The position numbers and the translations under genes were made by a program. A stretch of 64,000 bases of DNA, taken from the NCBI GenBank assembly GCA_951406725.2, contig OX597841.1, positions 17,546,001-17,610,000 on the forward strand, given 5' to 3'. Below, in pieces: positions 21,928-50,495 of the stretch (its first letter is position 1; the number at the start of each line of letters is the position of its first letter). This DNA comes from Octopus vulgaris. Taxonomy: Eukaryota. Under the pieces are notes generated by a model, which was not told where the DNA came from, ran no database searches, and saw only the letters and a list, made by a program, of their open reading frames with translations.

Positions 21928-21933
21928 AACAAA

Positions 21934-22324
21934 TCTTTATATATAAAAGTCAAGTTGTGTGTCTGTCTGTCTCCTACGACTTAGATTCCTAACTACTCCC
22001 ACATTTTGCGGTGCAGTTTAACCAAAACCGGGTATCTTATAGTCGTGATTCATATCGAACCCTTCTAGGTATTAGCGCACGTCTACGATGAGTCTACGAT
22101 TAAAAAAAAAATTTACCATCATTTTTTTCCATTTTAATGCATTTTCTCGCTATTATATAAGGGAAGTAACTCTCTAAAAATGTCTACGATGAGTCAACGA
22201 TTTAAAAAAAAAATTACCATAATTCTTTTTCCATTTTTTATGCATTTTTTTGCTATAACTCTCTAAAAATGCTTATATAGTTATTTCCCTTACAAACCCG
22301 AGCAACGCCGGGCGATACTGCTAG
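21934..22324 (+). mobile_element. Non-autonomous Helitron
   Basis: A|TCTTTATATATAAAA 5' end; CCCGAGCAACGCCGGG hairpin followed by CTAG|T 3' end; no TSD. Confidence 0.9.
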
Positions 22325-22819
22325 TATATATATATATATTAACTCAGCTGTGGATTTAGTGAATGTTTTTTTCTTTGACGAGAATTCAGATTATTGCTGT
22401 GTGATCTATGTGAACAAATATACTTCGGTGGGTAATCTACACGCTCATTTAGGTTGTTTATCCTTAACTTCTTGTTTACTAAGTCAAATGAAACAGGATT
22501 TTCTTATTAAAATCGTCAGAATTTTGAAAGAATACATTTACAATGCTAAGTATGTCCTACAGTAACCTTCCCCGTAGATCACACGCCAGACTGGCACCGA
22601 ATCACCAACGGATGATGTGGTCACTTGGTCCCGAGTAAAACTTAAAACCGCAACCGATAGTGGGGCCTTGGTACGGAAGTTCCAGGGCTCGGACGAATGT
22701 TGAACCCCTTCTTCGCCACTACTGTTCCCAGATCTGACCCGGACTATTAGCACTTGTTAGGGCCCCGGCTTATGGCTTAAGTGACATGTGCATCAACTGC
22801 TTCTATGCAAAAGCTATAC

Positions 22820-23043
22820 CTATTTCTTTACTACCCACAAGGGGCTAAACACAGAGGGGACAAACAAGGACAGACGAACGGATTAAGTCGATTACATCGA
22901 CCCCAGTGCGTAACTGGTGCTTAATTTATCGACCCCGAAAGGATGAAAGGCAAAGTCGACCTCGGCGGAATTTGAACTCAGAACGTAACGGCAGAGACCG
23001 CTAAGCATTTCGTCCGGCGTGCTAACGTTTCTGCCAGCTCTCC
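22820..23043 (-). mobile_element. SINE A monomer with target-site duplication
   Basis: Flanked by GCAAAAGCTATACCT / GCAGAAGCTATACCT. Confidence 0.9.
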
Positions 23044-23422
23044 GCAGAAGCTATACCTGCTCCGATCATTGGCAGTCATTGGGTCAGCGAATTCTATTCA
23101 ACGGTCGACAAACGACGGCGAGGTGGGGGGGGGGGAGCTGCTTCGGATCACACTATCCCCAAAGTGTGCTTGCACGTGATAAGGGACCACATTTGAACCG
23201 GCATTCCCACTGACACTCACAAATACGAGCTCTGCTCCTTAACAACGACGGCATCCGCCTTATCCGACGCCTTTGCTTTCCCCCGTGGGACATTTGTCAA
23301 AATTGCAAGCCAGAGATTTTATCGATCTAGAACGATAAAAAGGTGGAGTCGACATCTGCGGATTTGGGGTTCAAAGCATAAAGTGCAAAACATATCTACT
23401 AAGCATTTTGTCCAACGATTTT

Positions 23423-23590
23423 GCAGGAGTGGCTGTGTGGTAAGTAGCTTGCTTCCCAACCACATGGTTCTGGGTTCAGTCCCACTGCGTGGCATCTTGG
23501 GCAAGTGTCTTCTACTATAGCCCCGGGCCGACCAATGCCTTGTGAGTGGATTTTGTAGACGGAAACTAAAAGAAGCCTGTCGTATATATG

Positions 23591-23651
<61 letters not shown>

Positions 23652-23862
23652 GTGTGTTTGTGTTTGTCCCTCTAGCATTGCTTGACAACCGATGCTGGTG
23701 TGTGTTTACGTCCCCGTCACCTAGCGGTTCGGCAAAAGAGACCGATAGAATAAGTACTGGGCTTACAAAGAATAAGTCCCGGGGTCGATTTGCTCGACGA
23801 TAAAAGGCGGTGCTCCAGCATGGCCGCAGTCAAATGACTGAAACAAGAAAAAGAGAAAAGAG
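23423..23862 (+). mobile_element. SINE family B
   Basis: Full copy. Confidence 0.9.
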
Positions 23863-23892
23863 AAAGCTGACTCGCTTTCTAAATATATGCTA

Positions 23893-24292
23893 CTAGCAGT
23901 ATCGCCCGGCGTTGCTCGGGTTTCTAAGGGAAATAACTATATAAGCATTTTTAGAGATGTAAAGTATAATAGCCATCGCAATATAGCTAACCACAAAGGG
24001 GGGGGTGTTACTGTAGCTTTTTTACGTTCTGAGATTTAATAATAAATTTTTAGAGAGTTACTTCCCTTATATATGCCAAAAATGGATTAAAAATGGGAAA
24101 AATTGATGGTAAATTTTTTTTTAAATCGTAGACCCATCGTAGACGCGCGCTAATACCCAGAAGGGCTCGATATGAATCACGACTATAAGATACCCGGTTT
24201 TGGTTAAACTGCACCGCAAAATGTGGGAGTAGTTAGGAATCTAAATCGTAGGAGACAGACAGCACACACAACCTTACTTTTATATATAAAGA
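23893..24292 (-). mobile_element. Non-autonomous Helitron
   Basis: Reverse complement of the 21934-22324 family with TC and CTAG ends. Confidence 0.9.
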
Positions 24293-24633
24293 TATAAAAG
24301 TCATTTACATAAGAATTTTTTTTTTACAGATAAAATGACAAAGGGTTTAATTAAACTGAACAAAGCAGATTAAATAACGTATATTTTGAGGGTTGAACTT
24401 AAAAATGCATGGAACTTTAAAATGTCTAACGAGAATAATTCAAAGTTTCAAAATGGTAGGATGAAATTTGTAGATAATTAAACAAATTAGATAACAGAAT
24501 AAACACGGTATAAATATTTTTGAAGTCAAATTTTAAAATGAACAGAACATTAAAACTAGTCTGCATAAAGAGTTTGAGTCTAAAAATTGTAGAATTTATT
24601 TTATCGAATTTGCCATAAAAGCAGTATATAGAG

Positions 24634-24859
24634 CAGGGGTGGGCAAACTACGGCCCATAGGTTTTCATGCGGCCCGCCATAGGTTTTCATGCGGCCCGCC
24701 GAGAGGAATATTACACAAAATTTCCTTTCAATCAATTGTGTGTCTATAGGTCTATAACCGCCTTTAAAAATATTTTCACTTGATTTTTATAAATGAGGCC
24801 CGCCAAGGTTCCAAAGACGCACTGTGCGGCCCGCGATCAAAAAAGTTCGCCCACCCCTG
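24634..24859. mobile_element. hAT (Charlie-like) MITE, 226 bp
   Basis: TIRs CAGGGGTGGGCAAACT / AGTTCGCCCACCCCTG and a perfect 8-bp TSD ATATAGAG. Confidence 0.95.
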
Positions 24860-25596
24860 ATATAGAGTAATGTAGCTTTGCTTTAAACAACAGGAAGTCG
24901 CCACCACACCAACCCCTGCCGGAGCCTAGTGGAGCTTTTAGGTGTTTTCGCTCAATAAACACACACAATGCCTGGTCTAGGAATCGAAACCGTGATCCCA
25001 CTAGCCACTGGGCCATTGCGCCTCCACTAGAAGGAAGCTAGTTAATTTTATTTAATTTGCCACAAGGGCAGTACACAGAGAGTAGCTTCGCGGGCTGGAC
25101 ATAGACATTAATGAATGATGGTGAGGGAACGAAGATGGTGATGGGAGAAGACGAAAGCGCCTGCCGACCCCCGCTTCTCTAAGACAATGTTCTTTTTTTT
25201 CAATGAGTTCAAAAATGTTCAAAATTTTACAAATGTCACAAGAGACAATGAACCTCTTCTAGAAGGAAGCTAGTTACTACTTACCGTCTGTTGCAAAAGG
25301 ACGACCGCCAAAATATCGATATTTATACTAGAGTGTGACTACGATTACTTCATTTTTACTGTAGGGGTGACACAGCATAAAGCAAAAACACGAACTGCTT
25401 AGGAAATAATAAATTGTCTTTTCCCTGTCCTAAGCATCAATGCTTACTGATTTTTTTTTTTATTGCCCACAAGGGGCCAACATAGAGGGGACATCACAAT
25501 CTGATTTTGGGGTCAGATAAACGTATGATTTTTACAAAAATGTGAGATTAAAAATTAACAATATATAAAAAGAAACGAATTGGAAGACAGACTGGA

Positions 25597-25886
25597 TATT
25601 CTGCCGTTACGTTCTGAGTTCAAATTCCGCCGGGGTCGACTTTGCCTTTCAACCTTTTGGGGTCGATAAATTAAATACCAGTTACGCACTGGGGTCGATA
25701 GAATCGACTTAATCCGTTTGTCTGTCCTTGTTTGTCCTCTCTGTGTTTAGCCCCTTGTGGGTAGTAAAGAAATAGGTATTTCGTCTGCCGTTACGTTCTG
25801 AGTTCAAATTCCGCCGTGGTCGACTTTGCCTTTCATCCTTTTGGGGTCGATAAATTAAATACCAGTTGTGGGTAGTAAAGAAATAG
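25597..25886 (+). mobile_element. SINE A units (headless)
   Basis: Homology to SINE A. Confidence 0.85.
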
Positions 25887-26175
25887 GTAGCGGAACTAAA
25901 TTCCAATGTTATCAAAGCAGTGATTGCAACTGGCCTCCACAATAGTAAACGCCTGTTCATTCCGCGGATACCCCTTATCCCAACCGATAACCAGTTTCCG
26001 TTCCAATTAAGATGCAGGGAGTTTTCTATAAAACTGGCATTCTAATTCACAGCGAACAAGGCACAGGGCCTGACTATATAGATCGTGTAGGTGTATTTTT
26101 ACCCACTTCAATGTTTACACACGGTCACGTCGTTATAAGTAGAGCAACGGGCTCCAGTAATTTGAAAATTAGTAT
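25887..26175 (+). pseudogene. Helitron RepHel PIF1-like helicase C-terminal relic
   Basis: VAELNSNVIKAVIATG...LFIPRIPLIPTD...FPFQLRCREFSIKLAF*FTANKAQGLTI / DRVGVFLPTSMFTHGHVVISRA matches PIF1 motifs V-VI (TINKSQGQT...FSHGQLYVAxSR). One stop and one frameshift. Confidence 0.9.
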
Positions 26176-26207
26176 CGACCAAACAGAAAATAAGTTTTGT
26201 AATCATA

Positions 26208-26603
26208 TCTATATATATAAAACTGTAGTTGTGTGAGTGTCTGTCCCCTACGATTTAGATTCCTAACTACTCCCACATTTTGCGGTGCAGTTTAACCAAA
26301 ACCGGGTATCTTATAGTCGTGATTCATATCGAGCCCTTCTGGGTATTAGCGCGCGTCTACGATGAGTCTACGATTTAAAAAAAAATTTACCATCATTTTT
26401 TCCCATTTTAAAGCATATTTTTTAAATAAAGGGAAGTAACTCTCTAAAAATGTCTACGATGAGTCAACGATTAAAAAAAAAATTTACCATAATTTTTTTT
26501 CCATTTTTGATGCATTTTTTGCTGTTTTTAGGCTATAACTCTCTAAAAATGCTTTATAGTTATTTCCCTTACAAACCCGAGCAACGCCGGGCGATGCTGC
26601 TAG
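26208..26603 (+). mobile_element. Non-autonomous Helitron
   Basis: TC 5' end, subterminal hairpin, CTAG 3' end. Confidence 0.9.
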
Positions 26604-26855
26604 TTGATATTAAAATCCATTGACACATTTTTCAATACATACTGTTGTTATAATTTGTCTCCCTCGTTTTATACCGCCATCGTAGATGGACGGACTTGTT
26701 AGAGATTTTAATTAGTAAATCATCAACTGCCAGTCGTAGGCGAGATTCGAACTAAGTACTGCGCCCACCTCAGTCGTGTCAACAACAACAACATTTAACC
26801 AAACAGTAGAGCAATGAGCCATTTCATAACTGTTTGGTTTTGTCGTAACCTAAAC

Positions 26856-27031
26856 TACAATAGACTCGACTTGGCCACACACACACACACACACACGCAA
26901 TCAAGCATACAAACATTCATTAATACTTTCACACATATAAATCTACTCACATGCACACACGTTAAATCTTCTATAAATATTGATATCGTGTTCGCTTTCA
27001 GTTGAATTTTTTCTCTTAGAGAACGGTGAGT
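26856..27031 (+). promoter_or_regulatory. Gene A core promoter and non-coding exon 1 (about 27000-27025)
   Basis: TATAAAT at 26972, Inr TCAGTT with A at 27000 (28 nt downstream), donor ACG|GTGAGT (GT at 27026). The block is homologous to 37814-37992. Confidence 0.7.
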
Positions 27032-27300
27032 GACGATCCGATAATCTGTATAACTGCCTATGTTTAATTCAAAACTTTATTGCTTTTATTCCTATATATA
27101 TATATATATAATAATTAAGAATAGCCAAAACTCTTTGACTGCTATTTCTAAATTCGGTGTGTGGTGATGCAAATCGTTGCTAAAGCCTTAATTACTTAGT
27201 ATTACTTAAACCTTCCTTGAATGGGGCTTTTACATGCCGAAATCTAATTGGTGAAATTAATGATTATTCCAAATTAATTAATTTCACCCTTTATTATTAT

Positions 27301-27353
<53 letters not shown>

Positions 27354-27369
27354 TTTTTTCCCCACACTA

Positions 27370-28110
27370 GTAGGTTTTGGACATCTGCTGTACGCTCGCT
27401 CCACCATTTGTTGGCAGACGACACGCTACTCCTGACAGGCGGCATCTTGCCGCCACTCAGGAGATAATCTTCCAACCCATGCGAATGTTTTGTGTAGCCG
27501 TTCTTGATGAGAGGTTTCTGCGAAAGCGGAATGCAAATCCTACATCAACCTTTAATCGCATTTTATGACGCTCAGAGGAAACGTTGCGTCTATTCTCTGA
27601 CATGTCGGTCCCCTACACAGCATATTACTAGTCTTCGCAGACGACACTTTGTTGCTGGCAGACGACACCTTGTCACCACTCAGGCGACAGCACACTGACC
27701 CATGGATATGTTTGGGTAGTCGTTGCTAGTGAATTTTTACGATGTTGGGCCCCACTCCAACCATTTTTAGTCGCCATTTACGGTACGCCAAGGAATCGTT
27801 GGGCGTTTTCTTTGACATGTCGATAATAATGGTAAACCTAACATTATTAATAAAGAAGGATGAAAATGGCGTTGTAACAGCGCATCACTGCATTCGCCAT
27901 TTGTGGGCGATTCCATACTACTCGGAGCAGATGTCATCTTGTCGCCACTCGGACGGCAACCTTCCAATCCATGGGTCTTTTGGGGTCGTCCTCGTTGCTG
28001 CTAAGGGTTTTTATGAGGTCGGAGTGCAATTTCTACCTCCTACTTTTAGTCACCTTTTCACGACTCGCAGAGCAAACGTTGGGACCTCTCTTCAGCACGC
28101 TGGTCCCTTA
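27370..28110 (-). repeat. Diverged ~240-bp repeats (also at 20285-20870), possibly Tc1 transposase relics
   Basis: Shared motifs CCACCATTTGTTGGCAGACGACA, TTGTCACCACTCAGGCGAC and TGACATGTCG recur 4-5 times. Confidence 0.5.
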
Positions 28111-29084
28111 TAGCACAGTTTGTTAATTCACAAAAAAAAAAAAAGAAAGAAAAAAATGCATGCCCCTCATTAATTTAATTTCGAGTATTTACGATAGAAT
28201 ATTTTTAATATCCGAATTCCTTCTATTTTCGTTTCTCTTAGTGAATTTTCTCAAGTCTTTCTTCGATAACTGAACAAATACGTATACTGAACAGAATCTG
28301 CAGAAGAGCCAGTACCGAATAGTTTTTTAATATAATACAAGGTAAGCTCTATGTATTACGGTTTTCTCTTCGTATTTTACTTGTCCTACTACGGCCATGC
28401 TGAGGTACCGTTTCGAAGAATTTAGGAATTTCAAGTCTGGCTCTCGTACCCAAGGGCTACTTTGCTGACCTACTAAATAACGGTCATATAAACACGCTAA
28501 AGCGGTGGTGGGACATACACACACATGCACACGTCAGGCTTCTTTTAGTTTCTGTCTACCAAATCCGCTCAAGTTTCTAGTCTGCCAGAGGTAATAGAAC
28601 ACACTCATGACGCCTCTGGGAATTGAAACCAGATCCATGTGATTGGGAAGCAAAATTCTTTCAGCGGCTCCTTGCCAATTTCCGCTATCGAACGAACCTT
28701 GTTAAATTCAACCCTATTCAGAAAGACAACGTTGTTAATTACTTTAAAAATTACGTTGTTTTCCAGGGATGGACGAGGTATGCAAATTAGCTCACAGCTT
28801 CTGGTTAAGCAACGTTGTAGAGTTGTTTCGTCTCTGACCAAATTCTTGTAAATACACCACGTTTTCTGTTTCGTTGCTCCTCGTTAAGGTTCTGTTATTT
28901 CAGCATGTATCTAGCTGCTCCCTTTAGTTCGCGACTTGAATATTTACGGAGTCTCACTGTTCGCTAGTAGTACCTATGAATTTTTTATAATATAGTATTT
29001 ACAAATTATATATTAAATATCAAATGATTCATAGTATATATATATATAAATTAGTAAAATATAAAATATGTATACATAGGGCTA

Positions 29085-29565: not shown

Positions 29566-29698
29566 TTACGTGGCTCTGAGGGGGCTGTGGTCCAGTAAGT
29601 TTCAGGACCTTCGTGTAAAATCTCCGTTAAACCGGCAATCAGTTGGTATTTTCTTTTTTATTTCAGGTGACTGAATCCTGTTTATATTTGCATTTTTA

Positions 29699-29986
29699 AT
29701 GAATTTAAATCCGAACAATCATACGAAAATGTCTGAAGAAGCTATTATTAAGGGTTTCGCCGATGTCGTCAACTTTGTGTCCCGACTTATATTCGATGCA
29801 TGTCCTAGCTTAAAAATCCTGGAACCCGTGATTAAAGGTGTAATACCAGTGGTGGCAAAAGCAGTGATTGACTTAGATAAGGATCACCAAAGGGACGAAG
29901 GCGGTTATTATCGCTACCATGAATTGTCCTTCGATGGCCATTCGTCTACAGGAAGCAGACATGTGAAATCAAGATCGCGATGGTGA
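29699..29986 (+). CDS. Gene A: 95-aa apparent orphan protein in a single coding exon (acceptor AG at 29665-29666)
   Basis: Non-repetitive ORF just after TTTTCTTTTTTATTTCAG|. Amphipathic-looking N-half. ATTAAA at 30142. Homologous to gene B exon 2. Confidence 0.6.
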   Translation: MNLNPNNHTKMSEEAIIKGFADVVNFVSRLIFDACPSLKILEPVIKGVIPVVAKAVIDLDKDHQRDEGGYYRYHELSFDGHSSTGSRHVKSRSRW

Positions 29987-30672
29987 AGCTTCAACGGCCG
30001 GATATCGAAGGACTCGACATCGACTCGGCCGTGTATGCTCTGTTGTTGCAGAAACGTTCCAGTGTAGTTCTGAAGTGGGTTCGACTCCAAACAGGAACGT
30101 GGAAAAGTCTAAATACTTTCTTCGATAATATCTTGAAACATATTAAAATTGTTTTCGCTGTTCCACAAAAGTAATACAAAGTTTCACGTACATTTCGTGT
30201 AAGCCGAGAGACAGACTACACGTCCGTTTGAAATTTCCATTTGCTCTGGCTTTTGTGTTTAAACATTTGATATACATACATCTGTATAGTATAAACACAA
30301 ATGTATATATTTCCCTGTATAAATGTATATGTAAAAGTATGTACACAAATGTATATATATTTCGCTGTATATGTAAATGTTGCTAACCCCTGCATTCGAA
30401 GGAAAAGCTAATTTAATATCTATGGAACATCTACAGAAAAACCTGTGCTAATACCGTCATCAGTTTGTAAAATATATGTTAAAACCTTTGTTTTTCGTCT
30501 TTCGCCTCCGATACAATTTAAGAAAATTTTGTAAAATGCTTGAGTTGTTCTGAACTTTTCGTTTTTTTTCTTTTCGTGGCTAGATTTGAATACTTATTTT
30601 CGAATTCTAATTAAATTAGACTTTTTAAAATTTCAATACTTTCTGAAATTTACTCAGTGTCTGTCTGTCTGT

Positions 30673-30730
<58 letters not shown>

Positions 30731-31387
30731 CGCGCGCGCGCGCAGATCGTTTCGGACGAAATGCCAAGTAGACTTCATGGTCCGTTGCTTTCGCCGATCC
30801 TTCGGTATTGGTATACAGTGCTATAATGGGATGGTATAATTCACCCTCTTTATGAGCCTACCTTGCTCCTTTACGAGTGAATCGCAGGTCCCCGACTCGC
30901 TTTCGGGAATCGACTTCCAGGCCAGATTCCAAAAGTGGTAAGAATGCTGGGACCGGTCTATTGCTGTGCAAGATGCTTTTCGTAAATTTTGTAGTTTTTT
31001 TGTTTTCTTTAAGCATTAGTTCAAGAACATTTTGATACCACTTTGCGTATGGAGAAAGGTGTACAGGTGAATGTCGTCTACCAATACCGAAGGATTGCCT
31101 TACTTTGCAGCCTTTCACTGTCGATAGAACGAGTACCAATTGAACACTGGTGTCTATGCAATCGATTTAGCCCTCCTCTCGATTTTACTAACCTCGGGGG
31201 CTAAAATAGATTGCGTACGTGTATATAATTACAAACAGGTGAATTGTGAAATAACTCAGACGAATGTTAGATATCTCCCTTAATTTTTTTTTATTTCTGG
31301 ATTTGATATTTTTCTGCTTCAATTGATTGTAATTACGGAGATGCCCTTGCTCAGCAAGTGACTTGAACTGAGATCGTGTGCTTGAAC

Positions 31388-31900
31388 GAAAAGAATTGCA
31401 GCGTGGAATACCCTCCATCCGGCATTTGCCATATTCTGAACGCCTTACTTGCCTGGGCATGGACACATTGAAACTCCGACGTCTGGCAGCTGACTTGGCA
31501 GACACCCATAAGATTATTAACCATCGCACAAACAATAACTCTGAGCACCTTTTCAAACTACATCTGTCTAACACCTGTGGACATATTTACAAAGTCAGAA
31601 AACAGCACAGCTCCCATGACTTTAGGAAACATTTTTTTTCACGCTGAGAGTTGCTGAAGCATGGAACAAACTGCCGGCATCAGTTGTTAGTTGTCGGAGC
31701 ACTGCATCCTTCAAAAACTTCCATGCTTTCTGAGATTCGACAACACTACACCTGATTTTCTCCCCTCCATACACACACAAGCATGTATCTGACTCATACA
31801 TTGTTCGCTTTCCAGACATTTCTACATTACTGCATATGCTTTATACGCACTTTCTCACAAGTTGTGGTGCACCTGAGCACTGTATACAATAATTTCATTA
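31388..31900 (+). mobile_element. CR1-clade LINE 3' fragment
   Basis: IPSIRHLPYSERLTCLGMDTLKLRRLAADL...GHIYKV...RKHFF / RVAEAWNKLPASVV, a typical CR1 C-terminus. A further fragment lies at 32800-32970. Confidence 0.85.
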
Positions 31901-32024
31901 TATTTATAAGCCATTTAAGAAACACAAAAGCTGTTAGATTCACTTCATTTAAATTTAATTTGCATTATGGATTTTTGTCGGTGAACAGGTCGCGGTCTCA
32001 AAGCGACGAAAATATTTTGGCAAA

Positions 32025-32319
32025 TCTTTATATATAAAAGAGAAGTTGTGTGTCTGTCTCCTACGATTTAGATTCCTAACTACTCCCACATTTTGCGGTG
32101 CAGTTTAACCAAAACCGGATATCTTATAGTCGTGATTCATATCGAGCCCTTCTGGGTATTAGCGCACGTCTACGATGAGTCAACGATTAAAAAGAAAAAT
32201 TACCATTTTTTTCCATTTTAATGCATTCGTTCGCTATTATATAAGGGAAGTAACTCTCTAAAAATGCTTATATAGTTATTTCCCTTACAAACCCGAACAA
32301 CGCCGGGCGATACTGCTAG
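32025..32319 (+). mobile_element. Non-autonomous Helitron, short variant
   Basis: TC and CTAG ends with subterminal hairpin. Confidence 0.9.
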
Positions 32320-32461
32320 TTAAATTTAAATATTGAAGTGAATCTAACGGTTTATTGGAATGTTTGTTTCAATAATGAAAACACCCACCTATTTCAGATC
32401 TATAATTAAGAGATGAGGAATTATGTACTTTATTTATATTTGCCCTAATCTTGTTTGTTAT

Positions 32462-32512
32462 TAACACAACGTTTCGGCTGATATACCCTCCAGCCTTCAT
32501 CAGGTTTCTTGG
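32462..32512 (-). ncRNA. Minimal type I hammerhead ribozyme motif (Penelope-type)
   Basis: Minus strand: CUGAUGA-A-GGCUG-loop-CAGCC-GAAAC-GUU-GUG with an intact core. An inverted partner copy at 33149-33196 has a mutated core (CCGGUGA). Confidence 0.6.
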
Positions 32513-32585
32513 GGAAGTTTCGAACCTGGGTTGTCATGCCTAAGGTATTTTTCAACATGATGATGATGAGGCTGATAATGATGGC

Positions 32586-32720
32586 GGTGCCTTGGGAATG
32601 ATAGCAAAAGAGGCTGATTGCTACCTGGCTCAGATATCAGGAAACCCCAAAGTGGCAGAAATTCAAAAGATAGTGCTCATGGGAACTGCCCATATCCTAC
32701 GCAAAATACTTTCTATGTAA
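32586..32720 (+). mobile_element. R4/Dong-like non-LTR retrotransposon C-terminal fragment
   Basis: GALGMIAKEADCYLAQISGNPKVAEIQKIVLMGTAHILRKILSM* matches the GALG...IQK...GTAxILRKxL end of RLE-type elements. Confidence 0.75.
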
Positions 32721-33247
32721 TCTCAAATTTTAAAACAAACACATTTTCTTGTGGTTTCTTCAACATTCTCTAGAACAAGACTATGTACAAAACCAAATAT
32801 TTTTTTTCACGCTCAGAGTTGCTGAAGCATGGAACAAACTGCCTGCGTCAGTTGTTGACTGCCATGACACTGCATCCTTTAAGGCCCTCATGCTTTCCGA
32901 AATCCGCCGAAACTACACCTGATTATACATACTCAACATAAGTTGTAGTGCACCTGAGCACTGTACACAATGTTGTTGTTGTAGTAGTAGTAGTATTAGT
33001 GCACTCTAGGCATAACACCAACATGAACTTCCAACTTGAGGTCTCTGGGTGAGATTTCGAGCCAACTTGTACAAATGCAAAGCAAGTCAAACAAAATAAC
33101 CTCGAAAAATACCTTAGGAATGAGAACCCACGTTCGAAATTTCCCCAAGGCACCCGGTGAAGGCTGAAGGGTACATCAGCCGAAACGTTGTGTTAACAAC
33201 AAACAAGATGAGGACAAATAACCGTCAAATGTAAATAATGTACCCAC

Positions 33248-34430
33248 CTCTTTTTACTTGTTTCGGTCATTTGACTGCGGCCATGCTGGAGCACCGCCTT
33301 TAGTCGAGCAACTCGACCCCGGGACTTATTCTTTGTAAGCCCAGTACTTATTCTAACCGATAAGTGACGGGGACATAAACACACCAGCATCGGTTGTCAA
33401 GCAATGCTAGGGGAACGACTCACACACACATACATACATACATACATACATACGACGGGCTTCTTTCAGTTTCCGTCAAACAAATTCACTCACAAGGCTT
33501 TGTTCGGCCCGAGGCTCTAGTAGAAGACACTTGGCCAAGGTGCCTCGCAGTGGGACTGAAACCGGAACCATGTGGTTGGTAAACAAGCTACTTACCACAC
33601 AGCCACTCCTACGCCTATTTAATTTTTTCTTAATAAGATTATTTATTTATTTATTTTTTTTTTAGATAGTCTAAGCTTAAGACACAACATTTGCTCGGTT
33701 ACTATCTAGATGTTCAGCTTCATGTCTCTAATATAATATGCTGTATAGTAAGAATTCAAATAAAGTAGCCCCGAAAAGGGCTTTAATAGGTTCCCAGAGT
33801 ATATAGATTTTAGGTGGAAATTCTAATAAGGTATGTACACTACAATCGTGAAACCTGTTACGTAACAGCAGGCTAATCAGATATGAGATAATAACAATTC
33901 AAAGTAATTAACTGTGAAAAAAAAGCTTTTGTGCGTTCCCAGAGAATATTACCCTCAGCGAAGCTAGTGTTGGTATATTAGTGAATAAGCCACCAACCGA
34001 AATAAGTGGATCTATTGTTTAGGAGAATACTATTTACTTGTTTAAGCACTTGTTAACCAACCACATGGTTCCGGGTTCAGTCCCACTGCGTGGCATCTTG
34101 GGCAAGTGTCTTCTGCTATAGCCCCGGGCCGACCAATGCCTTGTGAGTGGATTTGGTACACGGAAACTGAAAGAAGCCTGTCATATATATGTATATATAT
34201 ATATATGTGTGTGTGTGTATGTGTTTGTGTGTCTGTGTTTGTCCCCCTGGCATTGCTTGACAACCGATGCTGGTGTGTTTACGTCCCCGTCACCTAGCGG
34301 TTCGGCAAAAGAGACCGATAGAATAAGTACTGGGCTTACAAAGAATAAGTACCGGGGTCGATTTGCTCGACTAAAGGCGGTGCTCCAGCATGGCCACAGT
34401 CAAATGACTGAAACAAGTAAAAGAGTAAAA
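33248..34430. mobile_element. Two divergently oriented SINE B copies (33248-33617 minus; 34042-34430 plus)
   Basis: Homology to SINE B. Confidence 0.85.
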
Positions 34431-34499
34431 TAGTAGTATTGGATAAAATGAGAAAATAACTAAAATAGTTCAAATTCTAAAAAGTAAGCATTACGAAAA

Positions 34500-34770
34500 T
34501 GAATGGGTTATTTCCCTTGCTGGCTATTTCCAAGAGGGAATGGGTTATTTCCCTTGAAAGCTTAAAAATCATTATTCCTACCGTTCATTCACACCCGAAC
34601 GTTATTCCTCACGCAGTTTACCCGAAAATTATTTTCTAAATCAATTTATACTTGAAACCTCCCCAGACACATAAGCAACGTGCGTGTGAAGTTTAAGAAA
34701 AATCGGTCGAGCCGTTTTGATGCAAAACGAGGACATACCGATACACACACATTCTCAATTTTAATAAGTA

Positions 34771-34772
<2 letters not shown>
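34500..34772 (-). mobile_element. 5' part of a second Helitron family
   Basis: Minus strand A|TCTTACTTATTAAAATTGAGAATGTGTGTG..., a Helitron-type 5' end. The 3' end was not found. Confidence 0.5.
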
Positions 34773-34811
<39 letters not shown>

Positions 34812-34814
<3 letters not shown>

Positions 34815-35595
34815 TTCTTTACTACCCACAAGGGGCTAAACACAGAGGTGACAAACAGGGACAGACAAACGGATCAAGTCGATTACATCTACCCAAGTGC
34901 GGAACTGGTACTTATTTAATCGACCCCGAAAGGATGAAAGGCAAAGTCGACCTCGGCCGAATTTGAACTCAGAACGTAACTCCAGACGAAATACCTATTT
35001 CTTTACTACCCACAAGGGGCTAAACACAGAGGGGACAAACAAGCACAGACAAACGGATCAAGTCGATTACATCGACCCCAGTGCGGAACTGGTACTTATT
35101 TAATCGACCCCGAAAGGATGAAAGGCAAAGTCGACCTCGGCGGAATTTGAACTCAGAACGTAACGGCAGACGAAATACCCATTTCTTTACTACCCACAAG
35201 AGGCTAAACACAGAGAGGACAAACAAGGACAGACAAACGGATCAAGTCGATTACATCTACCCAAGTGCGTAACTGGTACTTATTTAATCGACCCCGAAAG
35301 GATGAAAGGCAAAGTCGACCTCGGCCGAATTTGAACTCAGAACGTAACTCCAGACGAAATACCTATTTCTTTACTACCCACAAGGGGCTAAACACAGAGG
35401 GGTCAAACAAGGACAGACAAACGGATTAAGTCGATTACATCGACCCCAGTGCGGAACTGGTACTTATTTAATCGACCCCGAAAGGATGAAAGGCAAAGTC
35501 GACCTCGGCGGAATTTGAACTCAGAACGTAACGACAGACGAAATACGGCTGTGCATTTCTCCTGGTGTGCTAACGTTTCTGCCAGCTCGCCGCCT
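34812..35595 (-). mobile_element. SINE A, head plus 4 units
   Basis: Four ~184-bp tandem units. Confidence 0.9.
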
Positions 35596-35607
35596 TGAGA
35601 TATATAT

Positions 35608-35887
35608 ATGACGGGCTTCTTTCAGTTTCCGTCTACCAAATCTACTCACAAGGCTTTGGTCGGCTCGATGCTATAGGAAATACTTGCCCAAGGTGCCACA
35701 CGGTGGAACTGAACCCAGAACCATGTGGATGGGAGTGGCTGTGTGGTAAGTAGCTTCTTTACCAACCACATGGTTCCGGGTTCAGTCCCACTGCGTGGCA
35801 CCTTGGGCAGGTGTCTTCTACTATAGCCTCGGGCCGACCAAAGTCTCGTGAGTGGATTTGGTAGACGGAAACTGAAAGAAGCCCGTC

Positions 35888-35972
<85 letters not shown>

Positions 35973-36132
35973 CGCCGGAGTGGCTGTGTGGTAAGTAGCT
36001 TGTTTACCAACCACATGGTTCCGGGTTCAGTCCCAAGGCGTGGCACCTTGGGCAAGTGTCTTCTACTAGAGCCTCGGGCCAACCAAATCTTTGTGAGTGG
36101 ATTTGGTAGACGGAAACTGAAAGAAGCCCGTC

Positions 36133-36169
<37 letters not shown>

Positions 36170-37365
36170 CGTGTATGTTTGTGTGTCTGTGTTCGTCCCA
36201 CTATCATTGCTTGACAATCGATGCTGGTGTGTTTATGTCCCCGTCACTTAGCGGTTCGGCAAAAAGAGACCGATAGAATAAGTACTGGGCTTACAAAGAA
36301 TAAGTCCCGGGGTCGAGTTGCTCGATTAAAGGCAGTGCTCCAGCACGACATCAGTCAAATGACTGAAACAAGTAAAAGAGAGAGAGAGAGAGAGAGAGTA
36401 AGCTACTTACCACACAATCACGACTGCGCCTAGTTTTCCGTTAAATTTAAAAGTCCGTCTACGAGTGCTTGTGAATCGTCGATCGCGTCTATACATGATG
36501 GTATGTGCGAGGTTGAAGCAATCGAAAGTGATTCTGAAAGCCATTACAATTTACGAGACTCGCGGTCGTAGGATCGCGGTTTCGATTCACAGACCGGGCG
36601 TTGTCAGTGTTTATTGAGCGAAAACACCTAAAATCTCCACAAGGCTCCGGCAGGGGATGGTGGTGGTGATCCCTGCTGTACTCTTTCACCACAACTTTCT
36701 CTCACTCTTACTTCCTGTTTCTGTTGTACCTGTATTTCGAAGGGGCCGGCCTTGTCACTCTCTGTGTCACGCTGAATATCCCCGAGAACTACGTTAAGGG
36801 TGCACGTGTCTGTGGAGTGCTCAGTCACTTACACGTTAATTTCACGAGCAGGCTGTTCCGTTGATCGGATCAACCGGAACCCTCATCGTCGTAACCGACG
36901 GAGTGCTTCCACTCCACAATTTACGATCTTGACATTCTTCTTTACTTATAATATTCTTTACATTCTTCTGTCGAGTGGCTGTGTGGTAAGTAGCTTGCTT
37001 ACCAATCACATGGTTCCGGGTTCAGTCCAACTGCGTGGCACCTTGGCAAAGTGTCTTCTACTATAGCCTCGGGCCGACCAAAGCTTTGTCAGTGGATTTG
37101 GTAGACGGAAACTGAAAGAAGCCCATCGCATACACACACACACACACACGTGTGTGTGCGTGTGTGTGGCTGTGTTTGTCTCCCTCCCCCCCGCCATCGC
37201 TTGACAACCGATGCTGGTGTGTTTACGTCCGCGTAACTTAGCGGCTCGGCAAAAGAACCGATAGAATAAGTACTAGGCTTACAAAGAAAAAGTCCCGGGG
37301 TCGATTTGCTCGACTAAAGGCGGTGCTCCAGCATGGCCACACTCAAATGACAAGCAAATAAAAGG
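35608..37365. mobile_element. SINE cluster: several SINE B copies and a SINE C (36557-36910)
   Basis: Homology. SINE C is flanked by the direct repeat ACAATTTACGA. Confidence 0.85.
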
Positions 37366-37813
37366 AGAAAATTATAAATTTTATAGGTAAAATATTTTTC
37401 TGGGAACGATTTGGGGTTTATAACATTGCTACTATGGGAAATTATCGCTCAGCTTTACGAGTATTCGTTTTACGAGCGGTCTACAGTTAGCAGTACGCTT
37501 TACGCTACCTAAGGTTATCTCTACTGATATTCCATAGAAATTACAGCCTTAAAGTACCAGTTACGTACTGGGGTCGATATAATCAACTTAATCCGTTTTC
37601 CTTTCCTTGTTTGTCCTCTCTGTGTTTAGCCATAAGGGGCCAAACACAGAGAGGACAAACAAGGACAGACAAAGGGATTAAGTCGATTACATCCGAAAGG
37701 ATGAAAGGCAAAGTCGACCTCTGCGGAATTTGAACTCACAACGTAACGGCAGACGAAATACGGTTACGCATTTCGCCCGGCATGCTAACGGTTCTGCCAG
37801 CTCGCCGCCTTAA

Positions 37814-37992
37814 TACAATAAACTCGACCTAGCCACACACACACACACACAATCAACAACACACACGTTAATTAACACACATACACACACATATAGATAC
37901 ACCCACGTACATACACACTCACAAACCTATAAATATCGGTGTTTCGCCGTGGAATTCTTTTCGCTTGTATCTTGTCTGAGAAACGGGTAAGT
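37814..37992 (+). promoter_or_regulatory. Gene B core promoter and non-coding exon 1 (about 37955-37986)
   Basis: TACAATAAACTCGACCTAGCC(AC)nAATCAA...CTATAAATAT (TATA at 37928)...GAGAAACGG|GTAAGT (GT at 37987). Colinear with 26856-27031. Confidence 0.7.
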
Positions 37993-38025
37993 CACAATCT
38001 GACTGCTTTTAAACGCTCCACTTAA

Positions 38026-38613
38026 CCCCTTACCCGGCAGAAACGAATATATGCGTTTTGACCGAAATCGTTTTTTTTTTTCTATCTCTGGCGAGTTAAC
38101 TCGTCAAAAGATAGACTCGCCAAAATCGACAGCAAACTAGTTCCTTTGTCTATTATAAACTCTTTTTTGACATATACGAGTATATTCGCTCACTTTATAC
38201 GTCTGGCAGTGACGATTTCTGCCACCTTTCGCTTGAGTAGGGCATTGAAGACCGAGTATGATTTAATCACCTGGAGACAGTCGAAGGGTTGGAAGGCACA
38301 TTTTAGGAATAGAAGTTTTCACTTTGTTCTTACGTTGTTTTTTTTTATACCTTTATATTATAACCCCACCATGTCGATAACCAAATAAAATAACATGATT
38401 TTTTGTAAAAGTAATATGATTTTAGAAAAAAACGGGTTAACTCGTTTCTGCCCAAAATGGTAATTTAAAATCAATATTATTGAATTAAAATTCATAATAA
38501 AAAAGGTTTGAAATATACCCCGAAATCACCATTCAAAACATAGTAAAATAAAACAATTAAAAAATAGGTCTGAAAAAATACATTTATTTTCAAAATAATT
38601 GTTGGGTAAGGGG
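38026..38613. mobile_element. piggyBac-like MITE, 588 bp, in gene B intron 1
   Basis: TTAA|CCCCTTACCC ... GGGTAAGGGG|TTAA. Confidence 0.85.
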
Positions 38614-39460
38614 TTAAAGTAGGTCAAACTATGACAAAAAAATTTAGTAAATTTATAAAATCAAAACTACCTTATTTCCATCTGTACACCCTTGCAATTC
38701 ATTACGGGTACTAAAAAATGTCCTCAGCCTTATTCTAGAAACTACTGCATTGGGTTTTTAGCTGTGGCAGCAAGATCAGTCTTTCGTGGAGGTGAACTTG
38801 CAGTGACGGGAGTATTGTAATACGAATGGCAAATAGCGTATCTTGTTAGGGCAGACAACAAGAGGTAATTTAAATATTGGTCCTACTTTCAAGATTTAGT
38901 TCTTTTAAACCCACTAAAATTAAAGGATTTTATTATAAATTCAACGAAAAATACTTTTATAAACCTAGTTTTCCCTAAGCACACGTTCGTATGTATATAT
39001 ATATATATATATATTGGCCTTCGACCACCGCCGTGAGAACATCTCTTGTCTTCGTCTGCCGATAAAGGCATTTTCCCAAAATACGCCAGCTAAACTTGTT
39101 GTACTGTTATTAGTCGTAAGACACCCGCTGTTTTCGTCCTGTTTTTACCATTATTGTTTCTTGTATTTCATTTTTGTTTTTTGTATTTCATTATTGTTTT
39201 TTGTATTTTATATTCGTGTGGCATCGTCCGTTTTTCTGTCCCTATTTCGTATACATTCGATCCTTCTTCCAAGAAATCTAATGCTCGTAGCTTAGTTTTC
39301 CCGGGGGCTGGCCGGATCGGAGTGATCTCAAGATTAATCAGCCGAAATTGCTACGATGATCCGGTTATTGACTGAAGATTGAAGGCTTCGAATGTCCCGT
39401 CCGTTTTTTTTTGTATCGTCTTCTAAATGTTTTGCGTTCTTGTCCCAGTTTGTATTTTTC

Positions 39461-39514
<54 letters not shown>

Positions 39515-39566
39515 TTTATATATTTGTTGTGCAGGATTTTTTATGTGAAGTCGTGTGTTGAAACGG

Positions 39567-39721
39567 ATATTGTTATATTTCGGAATGGTCATTTTGCCAG
39601 TTTAGCCGAATTAATGTAAAAAATAAACAACACTGAAGCAAAATAACACCAAATATATAGTGCGTTGCGTGTTTTTATTGGCTAAACGGGCAAAATGACC
39701 ATTCCGAAATATAACAATATA
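39567..39721. repeat. Inverted repeat with ~42-bp arms
   Basis: ATATTGTTATATTTCGGAATGGTCATTTTGCC... and its reverse complement at 39679-39721. Confidence 0.85.
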
Positions 39722-39759
39722 TATATATCCTTAAATCCTTAAAAATGTTCCAGCTCGAA

Positions 39760-39889
39760 GGCTGCGGCCATGCTTATTCTATCGGTCTCTTTTGCCGAAC
39801 CGCTAAGTGACGAGGACGTAAACACATCAGCATCGGTTGTCAAGCGATGTTGGGGGGGGGGACATAGACACACAAACAAATACACACAC

Positions 39890-39937
<48 letters not shown>

Positions 39938-40505
39938 GACAGGCTTATTTCAGTCTCCGTCTACCAAATCCACTCACAAGGCTTTGGTCGGCCCGAGGCT
40001 ATAGTAGAAGACACTTGCCCAAGGTGCCACACAGTGGGACTGAACCCGGAACCATGTGGTTCGTAAGCAAGCTACTTACCACACAGCCACTCCTATGTAG
40101 AATAATAAATTATATTTTTACCGTATACAAAATATAAAAGAATTATTTTATACTCTTTTGCTTTTTCAGTCATTTGACTGCAGCCATGCTGGAGCACCAC
40201 CCTTATAGTTGAATAAATCGACCCCAGGATTTATTCTTCGTAAGCCTAGTATTTATTCTCTCGATGTCTTTTTGCCGAACCACTTCGTCATGGGGACGTA
40301 AACACACCAGCATCAGTTGTCAAGCGATATTAGGGCCATACACACACATATACGACGGGCTTCTTTCGGTTTCCGACCACCAAATCCATTCACAAGGCTT
40401 TGGTCATTCCGAGGCTACAGTAGAAGACACTTGTCCAAGGTGCCACGCAGTAGGACTGAATTCAGAACCTTGCGGTTGATAAGCAAGCTACTTACCACGC
40501 AGCCA
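39760..40505 (-). mobile_element. Two SINE B copies
   Basis: Homology to SINE B. Confidence 0.85.
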
Positions 40506-40658
40506 AATTCCTTATTATTTTATTATAAAAATACTATAGGATTTTTTTTAAACATTGAATCGCTATGACGGCCCAGTATAGTATTATAGGTATCACTGGG
40601 GCCTATATCCAAAATATAGTTGAGAACCCTAATTTTGAACCCCCAATTTATATATATA

Positions 40659-41378
40659 CTAGCAGTATCGCCCGGCGTTGCTCGGGTTTGTAAGGGAAAT
40701 AACTATATAAGCATTTTTAGAGAGTTATAGCCAAAAAATAGCAAAAAAATGCATTAAAAATGGAAAAAAAATGATACTCTTTACTCTTTTACTTGTTTCA
40801 GTCATTTGATTGCGGCCATGCTGGAGCACCGCCTTTAGTCGAGCAAATCGACCCCGGGACTTATTCTTTGTAAGCCCAGTACTTATTCTATCGGTCTCTT
40901 TTGCCGAACCGCTAAAATTTTTAAAAAAATCGTTGACTCATCGTAGACATTTTTAGAGAGTTACTTCCCTTATATAATAGCAAAAAAATGCATTAAAATG
41001 GAAAAAAATGATGGTAAATTTTTTTTTAAATCGTAGACTCATCGTAGACGCGCGCTAATACCCAGAAGGGCTCGATATGAATCACGACTATAAGATACCC
41101 GGTTTTGGTTACACTGCACCGCAAAATGTGGGAGTAGTTAGGAATCTAAATCGTAGGAGACAGACATACAACTTCACTTTTATATATAAAGATTTGCCAA
41201 AATATTTTCGTCGCTTTGGGACCGCGACCTGTTCACCGACAAAATTCCATAATGCAAATAAAATTTAAATGAAGTGAATCTAACAGTTTTTGTGTTTCTT
41301 AAATGGCTTATAAATATAATAATGAAATTATTGTATACAGTGCCCAGGTACACACAACTTGACTTTTATACATAAAGA
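40659..41378 (-). mobile_element. Compound Helitron with two 5' ends, captured DNA (41193-41361) and a nested SINE B fragment (40775-40915)
   Basis: CTAG at 40659; 5' TC ends at 41192 and 41378. The intervening segment matches 31858-32024. Confidence 0.85.
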
Positions 41379-41588
41379 TATATATTTATTTATTTCAGAT
41401 AACTGGAAAAGCCCCGCTCTTTTTACCTCAATATACTCAGCTTAATTTGGATAACCGTAAGAAAATCGACCAATCGTACAATTTAAGAGATTGTTGAAAG
41501 ACCGTCAAAGTTTTATACCCGCGTGCTACCGAAGTGAATCCTTATTTAAGATTCTTTAAACCAGTTGTGACGACCGTGATACCATACC

Positions 41589-42905
41589 ATGGAAATATTA
41601 TTGTCTTTTTTTGGATTCGGAAACTCAGAGACCAGCTTTTATGAGGAGAGCAAAGTTGAATATGAATACAGTTCTTGCGAAGAAAACTGGTGGTCCACAA
41701 GTGGAAGTTCGCGATCCAGCAGCCCAGAGCCCGAGAGTTCGAGATCCGGCAGTGTGTGGTCCAATATTCCGTGCGCCGGCAGATCCGACAGCTTGCTTTC
41801 CAATAGTTTGTGCTCCAGCAGATCTGATAGCAGTTTGTGGTCCGACGGTTCGTTGACTGATGGTTCGTCGACTGATGGTTCGTCGACTGATGGTTCGTCG
41901 ACTGATGGTTCGTCGACCGATGGTTCGTTGACTGATGGTTCGTCGACGGACGGTTCGTTGACAGACGGTTCGTTGACAGACGGTTCGTTGACAGACGGTT
42001 CGTTGACCGACGGTTCGTTGACAGACGGTTCGTTGACAGACGGTTCGTTGACAGACGGTTCGTTGACAGATGGTTCGTTGACAGACAGTTCATTGACAGA
42101 CGGTTCACATTTCGATCGTTCGCGGTCCAGCAGCTCGACCTGTGACCTTTTGAGCTCCAGCTGTTCACAGTCTAATAGTTTACAATCCAATAGTCCATTG
42201 TTCCGCTGTTCACAGTCCAGCAAGCAAAGTTTCAGCCAACCAAAGCCCTACAAGCAACTTACCAGCCCTCAACGGTCTGGCTGCCAGCAGCCCAGCCAGG
42301 AAAGGTCTGGCTGTCCGCAGCCCAGCCAGGAAAGGTCTGGCTGCCCGCAGCCCAGCAAAGAAAGGTCTGGCTGCCCACAGCCCAGCCAGGAAAGGTCTGG
42401 CTGCCAGCAGCCCAGCAAAGAAAGGTCTGGCTGCCCGCAGCCCAGCAAGCAATGGTCTGGCTGCCAGCAGCCCAGCCAGGAAAGGTCTGGCTGCCCGCAG
42501 CCCAGCCAGGAAAGGTCTGGCTGCCAGCAGCCCAGCAAGGAAAGGTTTGACTGCCCGCAGCCCAGCAAGCAAAGGTCTGGCTGCCCGCAGCCCAGCAAGG
42601 AAAGGTCTGTCTGCCCGCAGCCCAGCAAGCAAAGGTCTGGCTGCCCACAGCCCAGCAAAGAAAGGTCTGGATGCCCGCAGCCCAGCAAAGAAAGGTCTGG
42701 CTGCCCGCAGCCCAGCAAGCAAAGGTCTGGCAGCCCGCAGCCCAGCAAAGAAAGGTCTGGTTGCCCACAGCCCAGCAAGCAAAGGTTTGGGTGCCCTAAG
42801 TCTAGCAGGCAAAAGTCTAACTGCACGCAGTCCAGCAAGCAAAGGTCCGGCAGTCCACAGTCATGTTGCCCGCGTTCCAGAAAGCGAAGATACGGCTGTT
42901 CATAA
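41589..42905 (+). CDS. Gene B: 438-aa Ser/Cys/Pro/Gln-rich repeat protein, (DGS[L/S]T)x~18 and (RSGCPQPS[K/Q][E/Q])x~20
   Basis: First ATG after acceptor TTTATTTCAG| (41398), Kozak ACCATGG. Unique N-terminal, linker and C-terminal segments are all open in one frame. Repeat units are 15 and 30 bp with synonymous variation. Confidence 0.85.
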   Translation: MEILLSFFGFGNSETSFYEESKVEYEYSSCEENWWSTSGSSRSSSPEPESSRSGSVWSNIPCAGRSDSLLSNSLCSSRSDSSLWSDGSLTDGSSTDGSSTDGSSTDGSSTDGSLTDGSSTDGSLTDGSLTDGSLTDGSLTDGSLTDGSLTDGSLTDGSLTDGSLTDSSLTDGSHFDRSRSSSSTCDLLSSSCSQSNSLQSNSPLFRCSQSSKQSFSQPKPYKQLTSPQRSGCQQPSQERSGCPQPSQERSGCPQPSKERSGCPQPSQERSGCQQPSKERSGCPQPSKQWSGCQQPSQERSGCPQPSQERSGCQQPSKERFDCPQPSKQRSGCPQPSKERSVCPQPSKQRSGCPQPSKERSGCPQPSKERSGCPQPSKQRSGSPQPSKERSGCPQPSKQRFGCPKSSRQKSNCTQSSKQRSGSPQSCCPRSRKRRYGCS

Positions 42906-43373
42906 CTCATTCTGGAAATTCGATGAGCGTAAATCACCACTCGGACATCATGTTAAAATATATTTATTGCAATTGTTTTGGCTGCCTCAGGTAACGTCTG
43001 CATTGAAAAACAGCACAAAGAAGGGCATTCATGCATATCTACCGTATATACCGGCACAGTAACCTTTAAACCTAAACAAACAAAAAAAAAAATGTCATGC
43101 ATTCTAATGCGACCATATTATAGATGAGATACTGAGTGACTGAGAAGAAATATTCAATTTGTTCATTTTTTCCACAAAATATGAAGTAGGGGTGCATCTT
43201 AAGTGTGAATGCATCTTATACGTTGATGAACACGGTATGAAATTTACTTTTTTTCTTTTTTATTAAATTTTTTCGTATTTTCTTTTCTTTAGGATCTTTG
43301 CTTCTTGTGCGTGTGGGTGTATGAAGGATGTGAGTTGATGTGTGTGTGTATGTATGTGTGTATATTTCAGTGG

Positions 43374-50200: not shown

Positions 50201-50495
50201 AAGTTTATATGGATGTGTGTGTATGTATATATATATATATATGCATTAACACAAGTTTGTATGGATGTGTGTGTATGTATATATATATATATATGCATTA
50301 GCACAAGTTTGTATGGATGTGTGTGTATGTATATATATATATATATGCATTAGCACAAGTTTGTATGGATGTGTGTATGTATATATATATATATATGCAT
50401 TAGCACAAGTTTGTATGGATCTGTGTGTATGTATGTATGTATATATATATATATATATATATGCATTAACACAAGTTTATATGGATGTGTGTGTA
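47150..50495. repeat. ~50-bp minisatellite ATGCATTAACACAAGTTTATATGGATGTGTGTGTATG(TA)n with three embedded SINE A copies; resumes at 53018-53100
   Basis: Dozens of near-identical units. SINE A (minus) at about 47214, 47624 and 48150. Confidence 0.95.

Follow-up and report, generated by a model that had tools for sequence, protein, structure and literature searches.

In the VAChT/ChAT system, two mutually exclusive transcripts with one common non-coding exon 1 encode separate proteins, as described in PMC8719597. A second arrangement, outlined in PMC3228551, consists of homologous alternative 3'-terminal exons that are located in tandem and used one at a time, and is represented by human capping protein beta and by the variable terminal exons of mod(mdg4) and lola. 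Here, we describe a locus of Octopus vulgaris that is related to both. It lies in a stretch of 64,000 nucleotides (nt) of contig OX597841.1 of the assembly GCA_951406725.2 (positions 17,546,001 to 17,610,000; G000:C28:17546001-17610000), which is called the window in the following, and comprises two homologous exons, A and B, in tandem on the same strand. The interpretation that we favor, with a probability of roughly 70%, is that A and B are alternative last exons of one transcription unit, that the N-terminal module (N-module) of B has decayed to a leader, and that the rest of exon B likely encodes a Ser/Cys repeat protein of 438 residues.

As in VAChT/ChAT, the A/B locus has a shared non-coding exon 1 and two non-overlapping open reading frames (ORFs). 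However, VAChT and ChAT are proteins of unrelated origin, whereas exons A and B are homologous and in frame at two anchors. As in the duplicated 3'-terminal exons presented in PMC3228551, A and B are homologous, arranged in tandem, and each joined to a common upstream exon. In contrast to that class, the whole coding sequence of A and of B lies inside the duplicated exon, the start codons differ, and the products (95 versus 438 amino acids, aa) have no common aligned domain. In capping protein beta, mod(mdg4) and lola, the upstream coding exons are common and the last exon swaps the tail of the protein. One defining feature of each of the two types is missing at the A/B locus. A third point of comparison are the "mixed origin" orphan genes of Pristionchus, for which PMC6643871 describes gene split, frame shift and recycled coding fragments. 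Similar to these, B recycles coding sequence with a shifted start and frame, and its origin is unrecognizable from the protein; unlike them, B would have been recycled within a single transcription unit, and the leader still allows the abandoned part to be read. No description of this locus was found among the titles and abstract beginnings of the openly accessible papers searched.

Exon 1 and its junctions

The window contains no N, and exon 1, exon A and exon B are located on one gap-free stretch. In the genome searched (2.8 Gb, 227 contigs), the relatives of A and B include exon C at C28:17.39 Mb (with a 99% copy at 22.71 Mb) and exon D at 8.98 Mb, each having a splice acceptor, as well as dispersed copies on other contigs or far off, namely 7 of the A type, 10 of the C type and 2 of the B type. 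In addition, contigs of four independent sequencing runs with four organism labels were compared: X6 and X10, with 85 and 18 million contig letters from two studies, and the large runs X9 and X12. The elements of the proposed unit are the following:

28242 to 28341, plus strand: shared non-coding first exon, donor after 28341; joined to A (dispersed copies, X6) and to B (X6, X10); no ATG
29667 to 30449, plus strand: last exon A, acceptor AG at 29665-29666; 3' end not fixed, dispersed copies reaching 30396 and 30449
29699 to 29986, plus strand: ORF A, 95 aa, for which two helices (5-34 and 36-67) followed by a disordered tail are predicted with low confidence (mean predicted local distance difference test score 58)
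41399 to 43030, plus strand: last exon B, acceptor AG at 41397-41398; 3' end not fixed, an older copy reaching about 43030
41435 to 41587, plus strand: decayed N-module, now 5' leader, with ATC at 41465 (formerly ATG), TGA at 41495, and a 1-nt insertion directly before the new start
41589 to 42905, plus strand: ORF B (438 aa), which starts at the first ATG in the spliced message, with A at -3 and G at +4

The upstream exon was defined by dispersed copies of A, in which 28242-28341 is fused directly to exon A; in three of the A-type copies exon 1 is present and the intron is absent. In X6 and X10, the contig with exon B opens with the end of exon 1. In X6, the contig with exon A also opens with the end of exon 1, and it carries the same allele as that on exon B, such that both junctions occur in one run. 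The first-pass annotation had treated A and B as two genes, a view at odds with the joining of both exons to the same first exon. In X9 and X12, contigs continue through the acceptor of B into the intron, and no junction of exon 1 with B was among the contig ends listed, which does not prove its absence there; a junction of exon 1 with A was not seen in X10. The contig depths (A higher than B in X6 and X10) are unable to rank the isoforms and were not used. The last 28 nt of exon 1 are unique in the window even when up to 7 mismatches are allowed, no other exon 1-like site was found there, and the 5' part of B is single-copy in the genome. Because exon 1 contains no ATG and both ORFs are preceded by in-frame stops upstream of their ATG, exon 1 is non-coding for both.

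Several points weigh against one transcription unit. The exon 1 side of the joins comprises only 30 nt (B) and 28 nt (A), below the bar of 31 letters for a bridge; neither of the junction-bearing runs is on record as RNA; and the poly(A) sites of exons A and B were not located, as only candidate signals were found and the ends of the dispersed copies examined carry no A-tail. The lengths of 30 and 28 nt would, however, be expected of one node of a 31-mer graph with three exits, namely B, A and the unspliced intron, and they fit because exon A and the intron both start with GT. A further point is a 98% copy of exon 1 at G000:C28:22.72 Mb, 5 Mb away, the allele of which is present on the B junction of X10. 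This copy could mean that A and B are two separate genes with near-identical first exons and that B's own first exon was placed 5 Mb off by the assembly. The comparison of X10 with the window points in the same direction, as X10 is identical over 568 nt of A (29693-30260) and yet has 10 differences in 459 nt of B (41399-41855). However, the second copy belongs to a block of more than 20 kb with 96-99% identity that includes exon C, like an alternative haplotype; no A or B exon follows it within the 30 kb examined, the window has no gap from exon 1 to B, and X6 has one allele on both junctions. The block is probably a second haplotype that was kept in the assembly, and we regard two separate genes as unlikely.

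The block (G000:C28:22700001-22721811) matches C28 17.38-17.40 Mb plus positions 21933-28770 of the window at 96-99%. The distance from the first exon of C to exon C is 3.4 kb in the block and 176 kb in the main copy. Each of the two breakpoints carries the same repeat element, and an N gap separates them. Eight of the differences of X10 in B are common to the runs with the organism labels B and C, indicating deep or shared haplotypes at B.

Directly upstream of exon 1, a pyrimidine run with an AG resembles an acceptor (28215-28241). Two dispersed copies start at the same base and have nothing in common upstream; a further upstream exon is conceivable. Spliced-leader addition was rejected, as no common sequence precedes 28242 in the dispersed copies. 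A TATA-plus-donor site at about 37930-37990, recognized by eye, was considered as a separate first exon of B and was dropped, as the junction contigs point to 28341.

Homology of the two exons and the leader of B

Positions 29699-29851 of A and 41435-41587 of B can be aligned gap-free, with 75 of 153 nt and 12 of 51 residues being identical. The alignment, its coordinates and its translation had been noted in the first-pass annotation and were confirmed. Its diagonal is the best of the window after that of A itself (mean of the diagonals 40, standard deviation 5.7). It had been considered whether the alignment is any better than shuffled sequence, and it exceeded all such controls: none of 2000 shuffles and none of 1935 genomic pieces attained its local DNA score of 127, and none of 5000 shuffles its protein score of 45. 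In a plain tblastn search with the whole window as target, the B leader reached an expectation value (E) of only 0.22. A DNA profile built from A, the paralogues C and D, and dispersed copies, with B left out, matched 41411-41592 with an E of 1.6e-10 within exon B and of 5.4e-8 within 300 kb. The identity at the three codon positions is 27, 26 and 22 of 51, so the coding signature of the pair alone is faint. Accordingly, the claim that the motif P-x-L-[KR]-x3-P-V-[IV]-x2-V-I-P was kept with synonymous changes is weak, being carried by 2-3 codons.

Homology is not restricted to the leader. The 3' untranslated region (UTR) of B at 42952-42994 is homologous to the 3' UTRs of A, C and D (profile, E 0.0013), a match that was reached by none of 150 shuffles and none of 150 genomic pieces. 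Therefore, the entire exon was duplicated. Together, these results showed that the homology of A and B is real and runs along the whole exon, and the two exons likely stem from an ancient duplication. In a tree, A, B and C/D form three long branches (0.49, 0.5 and 0.36), from which B does not emerge as the sister of A, a point that counts against the favored interpretation.

The annotation had also listed several lesions in the leader of B, and the TGA at 41495, the ATC at 41465, the ATG at 41589 and the frame offset of 1 nt were all verified. Four of four runs have ACT at 41435, ATC at 41465, TGA at 41495 and ATG at 41589 unchanged, and no insertion or deletion (indel) in 41435-41589. The stop and the frameshift are thus not assembly errors that mask one long ORF; this explanation was refuted by the same codons and the lack of indels in runs with four organism labels. 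A 1-nt insertion was observed in X12 at 41419, upstream of this region.

The two former ATGs have different histories. At the Met11 site, 10 of 11 other rows have ATG and B has ATC. At the Met1 site of A, none of six C/D-type rows has ATG, and in this they resemble B; moreover, the B leader is nearer to C (37/58) than to A (29/62). Met1 is therefore more simply explained as a gain in A, and the claim that B lost both ATGs holds for Met11 alone (ATG to ATC). The start codon of B is aligned with the Val52 codon of A, after the insertion of 1 nt, and the B protein continues the frame of A. The predicted B protein is the second half of A, in expanded form.

Thirteen of the dispersed copies have 46 indels per 333 substitutions. 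At this rate, 6-11 indels are expected for the 153 nt on the B branch, and none was seen, which suggests that the N-module of B remained coding for most of the history of B. Compensating indels may, however, be hidden in an alignment with about 50% identity. The lesions could not be dated with the two older copies of B, as both lack the 5' part.

The leader might also still be translated today, as an upstream peptide with a near-cognate start and an edited or read-through stop, which would make the message two-cistronic. In the frame of the former module, 6 of 10 variants are synonymous, compared with an expected share of 0.25-0.31 (p 0.02-0.06, post hoc), and none affects codon position 2, whereas 4 of 10 and 0 of 10 are synonymous in the other frames. 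The ATC retains A at -3 and G at +4, and the absence of indels over 153 nt would fit as well. However, the frame has no ATG, and the TGA is fixed in all four runs. Furthermore, X6 and X10, the runs with the junctions, have no A-to-G change at 41401 or 41497, although contigs drop rare variants, and X12 carries the 1-nt insertion at 41419. Translation of this frame is very unlikely on balance. Equally improbable is a fission within a single message, in which near-cognate initiation or recoding in the leader would still produce an A-like upstream peptide. The promoter would then give rise to the intact small protein A and to a message with two cistrons, in which the N-module of the ancestor and the expanded Ser/Cys module have become separate polypeptides.

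Reading frames of A and B and the origin of the Cys/Pro tail

In ORF A, 6 of 7 variants between runs are synonymous (p 0.001-0.004); for this test, 21 of 28 rows were dropped, all from one X12 contig with 28 differences that was taken as a retrocopy. Compared with the majority of three copies, 12 of 26 differences of A are synonymous, whereas the private changes in the copies are synonymous in 1 of 25, 2 of 3 and 5 of 16 cases. By these measures of variation, A is shown to be under purifying selection. No protein homologues of A were found in a search restricted to lengths of 52-167, longer or fused forms not being searched; ESM Atlas yielded nothing usable for A. Neither A nor B matched a Pfam family (0/2), and a HMMER search of 1.84 billion proteins gave two matches, both to repetitive proteins and judged spurious.

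ORF B has an acidic, Ser-rich front and a basic back rich in Cys, Pro and Gln, with 21 Cys in the last 210 residues. It contains two repeat arrays:

41844 to 42106, plus strand: 15-nt array, 17.5 copies (DGSST/DGSLT), from the SST motif of the family
42274 to 42851, plus strand: 30-nt array, 19.3 copies (SGCPQPSKER), restricted to B and the two older B copies

The 15-nt repeat is in frame with its match in A, the SST motif at codons 81-85 (E 3.6e-4, 0/120 shuffles). The coding capacity of B is indicated by several results. Its 157 non-repeat codons remained stop-free in only 5 of 20000 shuffles, and 5 of 7 variants of the 15-mer are synonymous. In X6, X9 and X10, ORF B varies at 2 of 267 nt, compared with 10 of 190 nt in the leader (p 0.005). 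In a copy with 82% identity to B, both the final codons and the stop are still present. Other results do not speak for a translated B: synonymous changes make up 8 of 22 variants of the 30-mer and 2 of 5 ORF variants, the latter not being significant, and in X12 the variation of the ORF is not below that of the leader (3/87 versus 5/190 nt). No protein homologues of B residues 1-90 were found, and the leads from ESM Atlas for B were below 0.9 (0.82 and 0.76), within the range reached by shuffled proteins. Antisense to the 30-nt array, a minus-strand frame of 213 codons is open at 42269-42910 and is probably a by-product of the repeat.

The first-pass annotation had proposed a gene fission, in which one ancestral ORF with an N-module and a Ser/Cys module was duplicated and the two copies lost complementary halves. 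The ORF of B is indeed in frame with the second half of A at two anchors and runs into sequence collinear with the 3' UTR of A, such that early B was most likely an N-module plus a long tail. In addition, the C-terminal part of B at 42864-42880 was reported to match A at 30044-30062, beyond the stop of A. The letters agree, and the pairwise 3' score of 97 is marginal, as 4 of 2000 shuffles and 6 of 1941 genomic pieces score as high. However, the profile did not detect the zone, and no remnant of the repeat was found in A. The two older copies of B both have Gly-Cys where the window has Cys-Cys, so Cys-Cys is derived in B. The Cys read-through frame of A requires an extra base, 29998, which is absent from four of four A-type copies and from the C/D rows shown, so this frame is derived in A. 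The stop of A is kept in all four copies that cover its position. Finally, the SST frame ends at most two codons past SST-x-G in C and in three copies of the C type; in D, it stays open for a few more codons.

Judging from the copies at hand, the best reading of the Cys/Pro tail is a gain by B. The reciprocal loss of a Ser/Cys module by A remains unsupported. Equally, no ORF with both modules was found in C, D or their copies, C and D having short ORFs only, and no distant orthologue was reached. Of the original proposal, the duplication and the decay of the N-terminal part of B to a 5' leader were upheld, the two-gene split and the reciprocal half were not; B amplified the SST motif of the family. 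The loss of complementary halves of one ancestral ORF is improbable.

Instead, according to the favored interpretation of alternative last exons, a coding exon would have been duplicated behind one promoter, and the N-module would have remained coding through most of the history of B. With the Met11 ATG lost, a TGA and a 1-nt insertion acquired, and an ATG present at the position of Val52 of A, the start of B would have shifted to this downstream site, at which a scanning ribosome is now expected to initiate. Only in B would the SST motif and a Cys/Pro decamer have been amplified, and B reads beyond the point at which A stops. The choice between the products would presumably be one between polyadenylation after exon A and splicing past exon A.

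Relatives of the locus and implications

The first exon of the paralogue C is located upstream of the A/B unit:

25285 to 25327, minus strand: first exon of paralogue C with a TATA-like box, in head-to-head orientation to exon 1 of A/B

The first exons of C (minus) and A/B (plus) are 2.9 kb apart (window 25285-28242), and a shared germline promoter region between them is possible. Heritable processed copies imply germline expression, and the many dispersed copies thus argue for germline expression of the family. The two B-type copies lack the 5' part and are presumably also derived from mRNA.

Exon C (G000:C28:17394078-17394768, minus strand) contains three short ORFs of 43, 47 and 86 aa. The 86-aa frame, which is homologous to the 3' UTR of A, has 10 synonymous changes out of 22, and an ATG-less frame over ORF1 of C has 13 out of 30, leaving the coding frame of C unsettled. 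The 43-codon ORF starting from Met11 was considered as a conserved product of the family and failed, as only 5 of 29 changes in C are synonymous. This lack of visible purifying selection on the Met11 frame of C leaves the ancestral product uncertain, which also counts against the favored interpretation.

Two other elements of the window concern the surroundings of A and B. An ORF of 800 aa (50265-52667) with reverse-transcriptase-like motifs likely belongs to a long interspersed nuclear element and is a possible source of the many processed copies. An inverted pair of 415 nt with 94% identity (31858-32266 and 40948-41361) has its second arm ending 38 nt before exon B and could promote inversion or pairing of the A-B interval.

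With its short Cys/Pro/Gln/Ser repeats, B resembles keratin-associated proteins (KRTAP) and PRR9, and presumably also Cys-repeat proteins of sperm tails. Unlike KRTAP and SPRR/PRR9, B has no Pfam family or homology, and its repeats arose locally, such that any likeness would be convergent. From the composition of B and the dispersed copies, we tentatively propose that A and B are likely proteins of the male germline and that B is probably a disulfide-cross-linked structural protein, perhaps of sperm; this proposal falls somewhat short of even odds.

The A/B locus would represent a readable case of a new protein without a new promoter, in which a coding exon was duplicated behind a common non-coding exon. 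The loss of a start, the stop, the 1-nt insertion, the new start and the amplification of a motif can be ordered with the help of the paralogues and with the dispersed copies as dated snapshots. As a caution, annotation will split such loci into two orphan genes. The locus also makes it testable, in a lineage-restricted and probably germline-expressed family, whether a diverging coding exon is sheltered by an alternative isoform.

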